A stretch of DNA of 64,000 bases from an uncultured Phycisphaerales bacterium (GTDB lineage Bacteria; Planctomycetota; Phycisphaerae; Tepidisphaerales; Tepidisphaeraceae), in NCBI GenBank assembly GCA_963755915.1, contig CAVWLP010000002.1:1280001-1344000 (forward strand). The letters are read 5' to 3'. The notes beneath the pieces were generated by a model. The model did no database searches and had not been told where the DNA came from. It worked only from the letters and a program-made list of their open reading frames with translations. The position numbers and the translations under genes are program-made. The stretch's first letter is position 1, and the number at the start of each line of letters is the position of its first letter. Shown piece by piece: positions 3,327-19,887 of this stretch.

Positions 3327-4601
3327 ATGTCCATTGCAGTTGGCGAAGATCCGGTGACAACCGATGCGGTTGCCCCCCACGGCGGTTCAGTTGGCGATCC
3401 AATTGGCGATCCAATTGATCGGGCCGTGGCCCGCGACAATTCGACGGCGTCGCCGCACTTTGAGTGGATCGACGCTTTGCGCGGCTGGGCGTTTCTGGGG
3501 GTGCTGGTTTGTCATGTTAGCCAGAAAGTCGGCGGCAGCCTGCCGGGGTGGCTGGGGTTTTGGGCGTCGAGCGGGCGCTTTGGGGTGCAGCTTTTTTATA
3601 TCGTCTCGTGCCTGACGCTCTTTATGTCGCTGGATTCGCGCATGCATCGGGAGGCGCGGCCGATCGCGGCGTTTTTTATCCGCCGGTTCTTCCGAATCGC
3701 TCCGCTCTTCTGGCTGGCGATCATCTTTTACAACGGCGTGCTATGGCATGAATCCGCCGCTTGGGCGCCGCATGGGGTCTCGGCCGCCGACATCGCTTCA
3801 AATGTCATTTTCATGCACGGGTGGCATCCGAGTTCGATCGACTCGGTCGTGCCCGGCGGGTGGTCGATCGCGGTGGAGATGAATTTCTATCTGCTTTTGC
3901 CGATCCTGTTTTTATGGGTGACCAATCTGCGCCGGGCGGTCTGGTGCGCGGCGGTTTTTCTGCTGCTGAGTGTCGGGGCGGACCGGTTTCTGACGCACGT
4001 CATCCAGCCGCACGTGGCGGCGGGGAATCTGGGCGATTTTTATAGCTTCCGGCAATTCTGGCTCCCCAGCCAGCTTCCGATCTTTGCCCTCGGCGCGGTG
4101 CTTTTCCATATCCTGCGGCAGTCGAGGTTGACGCGGGAAAACGGCAGATCGCTGGCGATTCTCCTGGCGATCATCGCGCTCTTTCTGGTTGCCAGCGGCC
4201 CTTCGCGATTCGTCCGGCACGATATGACTTTCGCCCTGGCGCTTTTCCTGGGCGCATGGGCCATCGCCCTGCAGCCGGCGCGGCTGCTGGTCAATCGCGT
4301 TACCCGCTACCTGGGAAAGATCAGCTTTAGCGGATATCTGACGCACACGGCGGTGATTCTGCTGGCGATGCGGCTTCTGTATCACGGCTCGCCGCAGGTG
4401 GCGGGGATGGGGAATTTTGCAATCCTGCTGGTCGCGAGCCTGATTCTTACGGTGATCTTCTCGACGGTGACGTATCAACTGGTGGAAGCGCCGGGGCAGG
4501 CGATTGGCAAATGGTTGATCGCCCGCACGGTGAATCGCACGGCGCCCGCAGTGGCGGGAGAGGGGCCACTTACTCTCCCGCAGCTTTCCGCAGCGTCGTA
4601 A
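3327..4601 (+). CDS. Acyltransferase-3 (OafA/YrhL-like) membrane O-acyltransferase
   Basis: 'IDALRGWA', 'GVQLFYIVS', 'FFIRRFFRIAP', 'WSIAVEMNFY', 'GKISFSGYLTH', 'YQLVEAP'. Confidence 0.9.
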   Translation: MSIAVGEDPVTTDAVAPHGGSVGDPIGDPIDRAVARDNSTASPHFEWIDALRGWAFLGVLVCHVSQKVGGSLPGWLGFWASSGRFGVQLFYIVSCLTLFMSLDSRMHREARPIAAFFIRRFFRIAPLFWLAIIFYNGVLWHESAAWAPHGVSAADIASNVIFMHGWHPSSIDSVVPGGWSIAVEMNFYLLLPILFLWVTNLRRAVWCAAVFLLLSVGADRFLTHVIQPHVAAGNLGDFYSFRQFWLPSQLPIFALGAVLFHILRQSRLTRENGRSLAILLAIIALFLVASGPSRFVRHDMTFALALFLGAWAIALQPARLLVNRVTRYLGKISFSGYLTHTAVILLAMRLLYHGSPQVAGMGNFAILLVASLILTVIFSTVTYQLVEAPGQAIGKWLIARTVNRTAPAVAGEGPLTLPQLSAAS

Positions 4602-17157: not shown

Positions 17158-17225
17158 CGGGCATTCCGTGTAGTTGCGGCGAACCAAGGGTGAACGCAGA
17201 TTTGCGATCGAGCGCTCCGCGCATT

Positions 17226-17290
17226 TCTCTCTCTCCCGGTAATCCGGGAGAGGGCAAGCGGGCGTAAGCTCGCGCGGGTGAGGGCCTTGA
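17226..17290. repeat. Family A palindromic element variant; a degenerate copy of the 30-nt module follows near 17330-17360
   Basis: CTCTCCCGGTAATCCGGGAGAGGG...GGGTGAGGG; CTCTTCGAGCCCGAGGTTCAGAGCCGTAGG. Confidence 0.7.
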
Positions 17291-17427
17291 GCGCGTTAGT
17301 TTTTTCCATTGCCGTCATTCCATGCCTCTCCTCTTCGAGCCCGAGGTTCAGAGCCGTAGGTAGTCGAGCGGCGCTGCCATGCGGTCCGAATTTCTGGAAT
17401 TTCTCCCGCTGCAAAAAATGAAGAGGT

Positions 17428-17484
17428 TTCGCGCAGAGGCGCGGAGAATGAAATAGGTATTTGTCGCCTCTCTCAGCGCCTCTG
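17428..17484. repeat. Family B palindrome (CGCAGAGGCGCGGAGA...TCTCAGCGCCTCTG), 3' arm interrupted by the intron and completed at 19458-19464 (CGTGAGA)
   Basis: Removing 17485-19457 restores TCTCAGCGCCTCTGCGTGAGA, complementary to TTTCGCGCAGAGGCGCGGAGA. Confidence 0.8.
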
Positions 17485-19457
17485 GTGCGTCAGTGAAACC
17501 GGTTTTGTCTTGTGAACTGAAAGGAGTTCACCATGGAATGACCCGTTAGCCGTGTAGCCGCCCGGGCGTGACGACGGAGCAATCGGTCGCGCGAAGCCCC
17601 GGAAGGCGAAGGCGCGAGCCGTAGCGTTAAGCGAACCCAAACCAGCCTCGTTACGCCAATGGGAGTGGCCAACCCGTCAGAGAGGGCCAAGCCGGCGCGG
17701 ACGATGAAGCAGCGGGTGCGAGCAATCGTCCGGCTCCTCGGGGTCGATGGGGACGGCGCGTGCCGACAGACAAGATCGGGAACTGAGAGACCCCACGCAT
17801 CGTTGTGCGGCTCGTTGGAAAGACATAACCAAGGGACGGGAAGCGTGGGGAGTCGGATGGGCTCATAGTAGCTGAGAAGCGGGGTAATGCCCGTGAGCGG
17901 AGGCGAAGCCTGCCGCGAGCCAAGGAGCCCTGACGGTATCGAGCGGAAGTAAGAAGAAGAGAGGCCCGCTTGCAGGGACAACCTGACAGTACGGATGATC
18001 CGACAGACTTGCCGGAGCACCTGAGGGTGAACTCCAGGGGTCTGCCGGGGAAAGTCTTTCTTCTGAGACAGAAGCTATACCTCAAAGCCAAGCGGGAACC
18101 GGGGTTTCGGTTTTACACCTTGTACGACCGGATCTGCCGGCGCGATGTTCTGGAAGCGGCGTGGGACCGGGTGTCCGCCAACGGCGGGGCGCCCGGCTTG
18201 GACGGGGTGAGCATCGAGAAGGTGCAAAACTCCGAGCACGGCGTCAGTGGATTCCTGAGCGAGATCGAAGAATCGCTCAAGACCCGCACCTACCGCCCGC
18301 AGCCGGTGAAGCGCGTGTACATTCCCAAAGCCAACGGCAAGCGGCGTCCATTGGGCATCCCCACGATCCGAGATCGCGTGGTGCAGATGGCGGTGCTGCT
18401 GCTCATCGAGCCGATCTTCGAGGCGGATTTCCTGGACTGTTCGTATGGATTCCGTCCCGGTCGCTCGGCTCACGATGCGCTGGAGGCGATCAAGCAAAAC
18501 CTCCAGCAGGGCCGAAGGGAAGTGTATGACGCGGATTTGCAGTCGTACTTCGACACGATTCCCCATGAGAAACTGATGGCGTGTGTCCAGAAGCGGATCA
18601 CGGACGGAAGCGTGCTGAAGCTGATCCGGATGTGGCTGAAGGCGGTGATCGTCGAAGAAGGCGAGAAGCCCGGCGATCCACCGAAAGTCACCCGGAGCAA
18701 ACAGGGAACGCCGCAGGGCGGAGTGATCTCGCCGCTGCTGGCCAACCTATATCTGCACTGGTTTGATAAATTGTTCCACCGATCCGATGGCCCGCATCGC
18801 TGGGCGAACGCCCGGCTGATCCGGTACGCCGACGACTTTGTCATCATGGCAAGGTATATAGGCCCTCAGATCAAGCAGTTCGTGGAACGCACGCTGCAAG
18901 GCCGGTTTGATCTGACGATCAACACCGACAAGACCCGCACGGTGAAGTTGAAAGAGCCGGGCGAAAGTCTGAACTTTCTCGGGTACAGGTTCCGGTACGA
19001 CCGGAGCCTGCAAGGCGGGCCGGGGCGTTATCTGAACCTCTGTCCTTCGAGCAAGTCGATGCAGCGTGAGCGGGACAAATTGCGGGAGATGACCGGACCC
19101 GAAGCAGGCTTTGTGCCCATCCCGGCGTTGATCGTACAGATCAACGAGCACCTGAGAGGATGGGCCAACTACTTCGGCAAAGGCTATCCGCGCAAGGCGT
19201 TCCGTCAGATCAACCGATTTGTGCAGGAGCGACTGGAACGACACCTTAAACGTCGCAGCCAGCGTCCGTTCCGTGTGCGCGGAGCGAGGAGCTGGTACGA
19301 ACAGTTGCAGCGTCTGGGCCTCATCAGCCTGCGACCTGTTCCGACCGTGAATGCTTGAGAAGAACAATACCGTGAGAGCCGGATGCGGGAAACCCGCTCG
19401 TCCGGTTCGAAGAGGGAGAGCTGAGCGGCAATCGGGTCGTTCAGTTCTCTACTCTAC
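17485..19457 (+). mobile_element. Complete group II intron (ribozyme plus intron-encoded protein)
   Basis: 5' GTGCG at 17485; domain V GAGCCGGATGCGGGAAACCCGCTCGTCCGGTTC with AGC triad (about 19376-19408); domain VI ending CTACTCTAC at 19457. Confidence 0.95.
17970..19358 (+). CDS. ltrA: Group II intron reverse transcriptase/maturase, no C-terminal endonuclease domain
   Basis: '[14 protein letters not shown]', 'SYGFRPGRS', '[17 protein letters not shown]', 'RYADD', 'FLGY', domain X 'LRGWANYF'. Confidence 0.97.
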
Positions 19458-19887
19458 CGTGAGATTCTTCTGAAGATGCCCCAACCCATTACAGATTCTT
19501 TCGAATTTCAAAAATCTCAACCCAAAAATTCCCAGATTTCCCCAAAATAGGTACAAAACGTACACCCTTTGGACCTGTATATAGAGCTGCAATGTTTTTT
19601 CTCGCAGCCCCTATGTCAACCCTGTCCAACGAATCCCCATTGATCCCGGAACGCCCACCGCGCCGCGGTGGGGAAATCTCGCGATCCGATCATCAACCCC
19701 CCTTTCCTCCAAAAGTGGGAAATTTTGGGAAAATGTGAGTAATCCCCGTTCTTCCAACCTCACCGAACCCCAACTGCGCGCCCAGCGAAGGGGCTCCCCA
19801 GTTCAACCCTGTGGCGTCAACATTTATCTGAATGGTATATTACCCCCGGAATTTGATTCACAGGGTTTCCCAGCGGAGGGCACGAGA

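Follow-up and report, generated by a model that had tools for sequence, protein, structure and literature searches.

An endonuclease-less group II intron that probably spreads by retrohoming into a dispersed palindromic repeat of a Phycisphaerales genome

A complete group II intron of 1973 nt (GUGCG...CUCUAC, 17485..19457, + strand) splits the 3' arm of a palindromic repeat in the window, which is a 64-kb stretch of DNA from an uncultured Phycisphaerales bacterium (C2:1280001-1344000; the assembled genome, labelled G000 below, has 6.63 Mb in 3 contigs). We consider it likely that the intron, which lacks an endonuclease (En) and has an IIB-like ribozyme of the E/F type, is active or was so until very recently, and that it spreads by retrohoming into the repeat. 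The earlier note on this DNA, made from its letters alone, had proposed that the intron interrupts the 3' arm, and this was correct to the base: excising 17485-19457 rejoins TCTCAGCGCCTCTG and CGTGAGA into the inverted partner of 17427-17447, and the rejoined site forms a long hairpin (-46.8 kcal/mol, z -4.7 against 60 shuffles) with the junction within its 3' arm. The 5' arm, TTTCGCGCAGAGGCGCGGAGA (17427..17447, +), carries on its opposite strand an exact unoccupied 11-base target, and is followed by a loop (17448..17470, +) delimited by sequence and folds. The first part of the 3' arm, TCTCAGCGCCTCTG (17471..17484, +), is the end of the 5' exon and holds the intron-binding sites (IBS) IBS2 (GCG, 17476-17478) and IBS1 (CTCTG, 17480-17484), and the remainder, CGTGAGA (19458..19464, +), starts the 3' exon with IBS3 (C19458) and has a T-rich tail beyond it. 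The two arms are complementary at 18 of 21 positions (hand count), and z values of -2.4 to -2.7 were obtained when the 5' exon by itself was folded as DNA. The repeat was seen once in the window (4 matches with no more than 1 mismatch, where 3.1 are expected); that it is multicopy shows up genome-wide only, and not inside the 64 kb.

A genome-wide DNA search with the intron gave 17 matches, which comprised 12 full-length copies at 100% identity (3 with a slightly lower score), one copy without intron positions 1403-1933 (two matches), a 118-nt 5' fragment, a 273-nt 3' fragment, and a 41-nt match that is part of another intron. When the flanks were compared, the 5' junction GCGCCTCTG/GTGCG (slash, insertion point) was found in 14/14 recoverable copies, always at one position of one repeat family and never in an unrelated target. 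The 3' flanks (n = 13) read CGTGAG in 7, CGCGAA in 4 and CGCCTCGG in 2 cases, and positions -6 (C) and +2 (G) were invariant at all 13 sites. Moreover, an upstream inverted partner (at most 4 mismatches of 16) was present in 13/13 copies keeping both ends, with a hairpin loop of 27-39 nt in 12 of them and 101 nt in one, and the junction lay inside the 3' arm of the predicted fold in all 13 (z ≤ -3.4 in 11). Therefore, the placement in the palindrome is not due to chance. The junction is always GCGCCTCTG/CG and at least 7 nt from the arm end; two of the 13 copies sit in the penultimate repeat unit instead of the outermost one, and 7 occupied elements retain the exact 11-base target, unoccupied, on the opposite strand. 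According to crude GC3-based gene calls, 11/13 copies begin 75-360 nt past the end of a co-oriented open reading frame (ORF). The deleted copy (G000:C2:2850190-2851629) is dead, with domain V, part of domain VI and the end of the reverse transcriptase (RT) gene missing; its target is otherwise normal. Over 17200-19720, DNA contigs from 4 runs of 2 studies showed neither a joint across the intron nor a contig that formally bridges a junction; the summed depth of intron pieces in these contigs exceeded that of the flanks, a measure which is not a copy number.

The earlier note had supposed that the target repeat is multicopy, and the genome bears this out. The exact 11-mer GCGCCTCTGCG occurs 51 times compared with 8 in a reversed-genome control. 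At 18 bits, a weight matrix found 71 arm sites that are uninterrupted and none in the control, a count made partly circular by the training of the matrix on these exact matches. The host element, roughly 70-90 bp long, is a non-coding palindrome whose arms consist of one to three units of GCGCCTCT (an 8-base unit). The 14 nt beyond 42 arms contain 49% T versus about 20% genome-wide, mostly without an unbroken T run, and with this T content and its position after co-oriented ORFs the element looks like a putative bidirectional terminator. As a short, multicopy, intergenic palindrome it resembles repetitive extragenic palindromic (REP) sequences and REPINs. The name REP in the strict RAYT sense was considered and is unsupported, as the Y1-transposase genes are not flanked by the repeat: the genome has two Y1_Tnp genes (C3:1125127, C3:576500) and an arm-like motif was found at neither locus.

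How the intron reads this target was studied by comparison with its relatives. Out of at least 586 RT-related loci we used the best 80 (43-79% identity), placed the 5' ends in 45, and analysed 44 distinct intron/exon rows; the starts of 16 relatives without GTGYG were set by eye from a profile alignment, and the first 330 nt of the introns were aligned alongside the 5' exons. Pairing of the exon-binding sites (EBS) EBS1 and EBS2 with the 5' exon, a point raised in the earlier note, was present, and both covary with the exons. In the window intron, EBS2 is CGC (17654..17656, +, in GUUACGCCAA) and pairs with IBS2 GCG (-9 to -7), EBS1 is CAGAG (17678..17682, +, in the terminal loop GUCAGAGA) and pairs with IBS1 CTCTG (-5 to -1), and EBS3 is G (17746, +) and pairs with the first 3'-exon base, C19458. 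With G-U allowed, EBS1 formed 5/5 pairs in 31/44 rows and at least 4/5 in 43/44, while exons shuffled among introns gave on average 5.0 rows with 5/5 pairs and at most 10 (500 shuffles). For EBS2, the mean longest run was 4.80 compared with 4.26 after shuffling, and 0/500 shuffles reached the observed value; as G(C/T)G is common to many exons, this difference is modest. Switches of EBS2/IBS2 among the relatives include CGC/GCG, CAC/GTG, AAACCC/GGGTTT, AAGGGC/GCCCTT and TCTCG/CGAGA. The EBS3 column was complementary to +1 in 26/31 introns with both ends, with all four bases used (runner-up column, 18/31). A same-genus intron in genome G003, 81% identical over its full length, has CCAAG as EBS1 and is located at ...CCTTGGCGTCTTGG/CGTCTTGGCGG (in short form ...GGCGTCTTGG/CGTCTTGG), which is another array of 8-base units where its EBS2 ACGCC matches GGCGT. 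The covariation thus favours recognition of the target through EBS1/EBS2/EBS3 base pairing, and of the repeat sequence over the hairpin structure.

The repeat is older than the intron. We found the 14-mer GCGCCTCTGCGYGA in 12/12 other same-genus genomes (1-85 copies, control 0) and at 0-1 copies in 13 genomes of other genera. The full-length intron was present in one of the 12 same-genus genomes (G003), that is, in 2/13 counting G000; three more contained short, weak intron matches only, and several of these genomes are fragmented, so that absence is not proven there. Empty orthologous sites were recovered for two copies, in G002 (...GCGCCTCTGCGTGAGATCCTCTTC...) and G012 (...GCGCCTCTGCGTGAGATTCTTT...), where the repeat is uninterrupted and reads ...GCGCCTCTGCGTGAGAT.... 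As these empty sites carry the repeat, it predates the intron burst and insertion was exact; the intron entered precisely and without duplication. The comparison is limited to these two other copies, since the G002 region orthologous to the window's own copy loses similarity just past the upstream hydrolase gene. At the orthologue of the C2:3493498 spacer in G011 (L152, G011:C26), we observed a different palindrome with ATCTG-type units (...TTATCTGCGTCCATCTG...), which resembles the targets of the introns L041, L072 and L074, while the same spot in G000 and G012 holds a GCGCCTCT-type palindrome. At a single intergenic position, one palindrome family seems to be replaced by another.

Relatives were found in Acidobacteriota, Planctomycetota, Verrucomicrobiota and Desulfobacterota, and part of them share the habit. 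For 6 of the 29 relatives with enough flank, the 130 nt upstream held an inverted partner without gaps (up to 5 mismatches in 21), against a background of 0.2% of 1564 positions. In folds judged by reading, L023, L040, L041, L044, L051, L072 (two copies) and L085 formed a clear hairpin whose 3' arm contains the site, close to the stem base; of the 30 relatives for which both ends are defined, about two thirds showed no strong hairpin. In 16/44 rows, the final 8 bases of the exon were repeated 7-10 nt further upstream (at most 2 mismatches), compared with 3.2% of 7820 background positions. The palindrome at L044 is multicopy in its complete Terriglobia genome (at least 66 matches, from 40 of 145 candidates scored), and this genome has two intron copies, the second at CTCTGCGCCTCTGCGCCTCTG/CGTCGAG, whose core is identical to that of the window site. 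In Chthoniobacter flavus (L058) a related intron is located at CTCTGCGCCTCTGCGGCCTCTG/CGG. Judged from these flanks, the phased-palindrome habit appears to be frequent in the lineage but not universal. We also propose, tentatively and with somewhat less than even confidence, that an E/F-type En-less lineage, spanning at least Planctomycetota, Acidobacteriota, Verrucomicrobiota, Desulfobacterota and Bacteroidota, may habitually target terminator-like palindromes whose arms consist of 7-10-base units, which would be read by EBS2/EBS1; a shift of the host's repeat family would be followed by retargeting through one or two EBS changes.

Some results weigh against base pairing as the whole account. 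The EBS2-IBS2 pairing of the window intron itself is just 3 bp, and the minimal motif GCG.CTCTGC occurs unoccupied 120 times in the genome (118 in the reversed-genome control), with an inverted partner in 38 only; as 120 such motifs stand free and yet 14/14 insertions are in the repeat, base pairing alone is insufficient for the restriction. Positions read by the protein, the hairpin, or the loss of genic insertions must add to it; the constant C at -6 and G at +2 hint at a longer recognised site.

If the hairpin supplied this restriction, the ribonucleoprotein would recognise the repeat's DNA hairpin on single-stranded DNA, as in IIC introns, with the short pairings merely setting the exact cut, a reading that we consider unlikely. 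It would account for the confinement of all 14 insertions to the palindrome although about 80 non-palindromic minimal motifs exist, and for the position in the 3' arm, both in 13/13 own copies and in the hairpin relatives listed above; further, the closest solved RT structure is that of an IIC enzyme, the GsI-IIC RT (E 6.7e-65, about 37% identity by hand count, which is below the lineage's own 43-79%). However, a palindrome puts a given motif in the same arm on both strands, so the 3' arm is not an independent observation across the copies of one genome, and IBS1 and IBS2 are base-paired within the hairpin, so that folding should hide the target. Moreover, two of the 13 copies are in the penultimate unit and not the outermost, and neither strong hairpins nor ungapped inverted partners are the rule among the relatives. 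The hairpin itself is presumably not the thing recognised.

It is very improbable that the intron has no extra specificity and inserts wherever about nine paired bases occur, the genic copies being purged and the intergenic repeat ones left. The roughly 80 unoccupied minimal sites outside palindromes, many of them in apparent coding sequence, and the expected neutrality of intergenic terminator-like positions agree with such purging, but twelve identical copies point to a burst too recent for much of it, the bases at -6 and +2 are invariant at 13 sites, and the sister intron and distant relatives are likewise in phased repeats. Hardly credible is the idea that the phased 8-base units are a by-product of intron activity instead of a pre-existing host, for although the unit length equals the IBS2-to-IBS1 span and Ge.ur.I1-1 has, in the cited passages of PMC3753933, repeated IBS motifs at which alternative 5' splice sites are used with a spacing of 9 nt, the repeat is found in every same-genus genome searched and the full-length intron in two, the empty sites are already phased, a periodic sequence shows its unit at every period so that the length match is expected, and phased-unit palindromes have largely been seen already in clades without such introns.

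The element at 17485-19457 is a mobile group II intron by its 5' end, its domains V/VI, its domain IV ORF with RT and maturase domains and its EBS1-IBS1 pairing. On inspection of the sequence, GTGCG opens it at 17485 and CTCTAC closes it at 19457. A partial domain I (17523..17753, +) matches Rfam group-II-D1D4-6 with 51.2 bits (gathering score 49), a model for which the Rfam 15 paper names no intron class, and the Rfam Intron_gpII (RF00029) match to domains V/VI covers 19374-19457 with 53.6 bits (gathering score 40). Domain V (19376..19409, +; fold z -5.2) has a 2-nt bulge and a GAAAC/AAA loop in place of a GNRA tetraloop, its apex being predicted as GCGG-GAAAC-CCGC or as a 5-bp stem with an AAA loop; the AGC triad reported in the earlier note was confirmed by the Rfam match and the fold. 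Domain VI (19410..19457, +; fold z -8.0) has a predicted bulged branch adenosine at 19451, six bases from the end. The intron-encoded protein (17970..19358, +) is the longest ORF, with 462 aa from a TTG whose status as the true start is uncertain; it has a YADD motif and scores 389.9 bits (cut-off 300) with TIGR04416, the NCBIfam group II RT/maturase model, which is general and not class-specific. The lack of an endonuclease claimed in the earlier note also holds: the only Pfam matches are RVT_1 (1.4e-33) and GIIM (8.6e-14), and a D/En domain was not found, as GIIM stops at residue 434/462 with no later Pfam match.

A CGC triad is typical of class C (IIC) introns. The window intron is IIB-like, of the E/F type and not IIC, as the earlier note had argued, and class IIC is excluded on RNA grounds: this intron has the AGC triad, a covarying EBS2, an EBS1 of 5 bp and a ribozyme portion of about 640-670 nt outside the ORF, and it is inserted inside the stem, within the 3' arm at a fixed sequence. 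Class IIC introns, in the cited passages of PMC3753933, have no EBS2-IBS2 pairing and a short EBS1, and the O. iheyensis ribozyme has 412 nt; the traits given there for IIE/IIF (Nagy et al. 2013, PMC3753933) are a size of 450-700 nt, a 5-nt domain V loop, an IIB-like structure with EBS2 and no En, and all of those examined (ribozyme size, domain V loop, EBS2 and no En) were found in the window intron. The label "class F-like" thus describes RNA traits given for IIE/IIF and not a position in an RT tree. The best PLSDB tblastn match to the RT had 46% identity, among entries without class labels. In the same genome, the sole other domain V/VI match is L130 (C3:86234-86312, 53.3 bits), with a near-identical domain V and no Rfam domain I match. 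The ORF upstream of L130 has only 196 aa, and L130 probably represents a relative that has decayed. The other introns of the genome, considered as an internal IIC reference, were rejected, L130 being the only one and of the same type as the window intron.

Among known systems, class F introns such as Ge.ur.I1-1 of Geobacter uraniireducens and Pe.th.I2 are similar in having an intron-encoded protein without endonuclease, a compact IIB-like ribozyme within 450-700 nt, EBS1 and EBS2 in domain I, and a domain V loop that is not a GNRA tetraloop (PMC3753933, PMC3552965). The repeated IBS motifs in the 5' exon of Ge.ur.I1-1, which are 9 nt apart and where its alternative 5' splice sites lie (PMC3753933), recall the phased units of the window repeat. 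The basal F group is restricted to Ge.ur.I1, So.us.I2, Pe.th.I2 and c-Ku.st.I1 in the cited part of Toro & Martinez-Abarca 2013 (PMC3552965), and the phyla of the window intron's relatives overlap the hosts named there for it. In contrast to the window repeat, the exon repeats are not described as a dispersed palindromic family or a usual target in the cited passages of these two sources, and the likeness is one of RNA traits, not of the RT tree.

Class C introns are inserted behind intrinsic terminators or at the attC hairpins of integrons, as stated in the cited passages (Zimmerly & Semper 2015, PMC4424553; PMC1702495). They share with the window intron the lack of an endonuclease, the multicopy state and the hairpin or terminator-like intergenic sites downstream of genes, whereas the window intron differs in the RNA traits given above, including a larger ribozyme, enters the 3' arm and not the sequence past the stem, and requires a specific sequence and not any terminator. 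This favours a parallel of outcome more than of mechanism. RmInt1 of Sinorhizobium meliloti is likewise En-less, multiplies by homing into another repeated element (ISRm2011-2) that it reads by EBS/IBS pairing, and has a reported lagging-strand template preference (PMC1802570, PMC8914252, in the parts cited), but its host is an insertion sequence and that of the window intron a non-coding palindrome. The IS110-family elements ISPpu9/ISPpu10, which insert into REP sequences via a bridge RNA (bioRxiv 10.1101/2025.01.17.633520, 10.64898/2026.03.19.712850; Tobes & Pareja 2006, PMC1525189, in the portions cited), are also mobile elements that use RNA-DNA pairing and a multicopy intergenic palindrome as target, with a recombinase and guide RNA in contrast to the ribozyme and reverse transcriptase of the window intron.

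Three target specificities of group II introns, namely homing sites, terminators and attC, are named in the cited part of Zimmerly & Semper 2015 (PMC4424553), where all lineages but class C home. The window intron therefore counts as homing, with a repeated element as its site, like RmInt1 with ISRm2011-2. In the literature searched, we found no non-IIC intron specialised on REP-like palindromes and no non-IIC lineage with a phased-unit palindrome as its usual site; the nearest case, in a table of PMC1525189, is that of "2 of 9" KT2440 intron copies associated with REPs.

We propose that the excised intron RNA, bound to its own reverse transcriptase, would reverse-splice into DNA where EBS2 (CGC), EBS1 (CAGAG) and EBS3 (G) pair with GCG-N-CTCTG/C, a motif that equals the 8-base unit GCGCCTCT repeated in the arms of a genus-wide terminator-like palindrome. 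With the pairing motif being the repeat unit, dozens of near-identical intergenic targets are available, on both strands of each element. The insertions are downstream of genes, usually in sense orientation, so that read-through transcripts could express the intron and splice it out. The copies presumably remain mobile. Other En-less introns prime from replication-fork DNA, and by analogy priming in this intron would also be by DNA of the replication fork. The copies keeping both ends on C2 are ordered as one -, eight + and two -, a pattern that is suggestive only (11/165 arrangements have so few runs, hand count), and cumulative GC skew, long-ORF strand bias and a 5-mer skew decomposition gave no replichore signal in the genome. 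There are two dnaA-like genes (C2:1091682 and C2:2252977). Many identical IS-type ATPase genes with weak Bac_DnaA/IstB-like matches occur genome-wide, one set having 9 identical-scoring copies and another about 30.

When characterizing the surroundings of the window copy, we observed that an alpha/beta-hydrolase gene ends 327 nt upstream of it and that window positions 17211-17360, in the same intergenic spacer, contain at least two further dispersed repeat families (query ~612-732 and 726-775), which match dozens of places in the own genome and in others of the genus (75-100% identity); the spacer is a patchwork of small repeats. In addition, tandem relatives or ORF-less derivatives of about 670-700 nt were present beside full copies at L023 (250-918 and 927 onward), L072 (1903-3882 and 4398-5099) and L050 (~3913-3922), and at L023 and L050 the second intron begins 8 nt past the end of the first. 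From the profile alignment and a matching EBS1/IBS1, L037, L046 and L074 seemingly start with GAAAGCG and not GUGYG, which may be an unusual 5' end or a misplaced boundary.

As a rule, group II introns of bacteria are rare and confined to other mobile DNA. The present case shows a non-IIC intron reaching high copy number without host harm: dozens of neutral sites are open to it because its guide sequences correspond to the unit of an intergenic palindrome that existed beforehand, and in a close relative a change of two EBS1 bases takes the intron to a different repeat family. If the habit is lineage-wide, it would explain where class F-type introns persist; it also joins two kinds of selfish DNA in one life cycle and offers compact, naturally multi-site targetron scaffolds. 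In addition to ordinary homing sites, terminators and attC, it would then be a fourth strategy of targeting, the RNA-guided analogue of what IIC introns do, and the repeats would serve as the long-term reservoir of the lineage.

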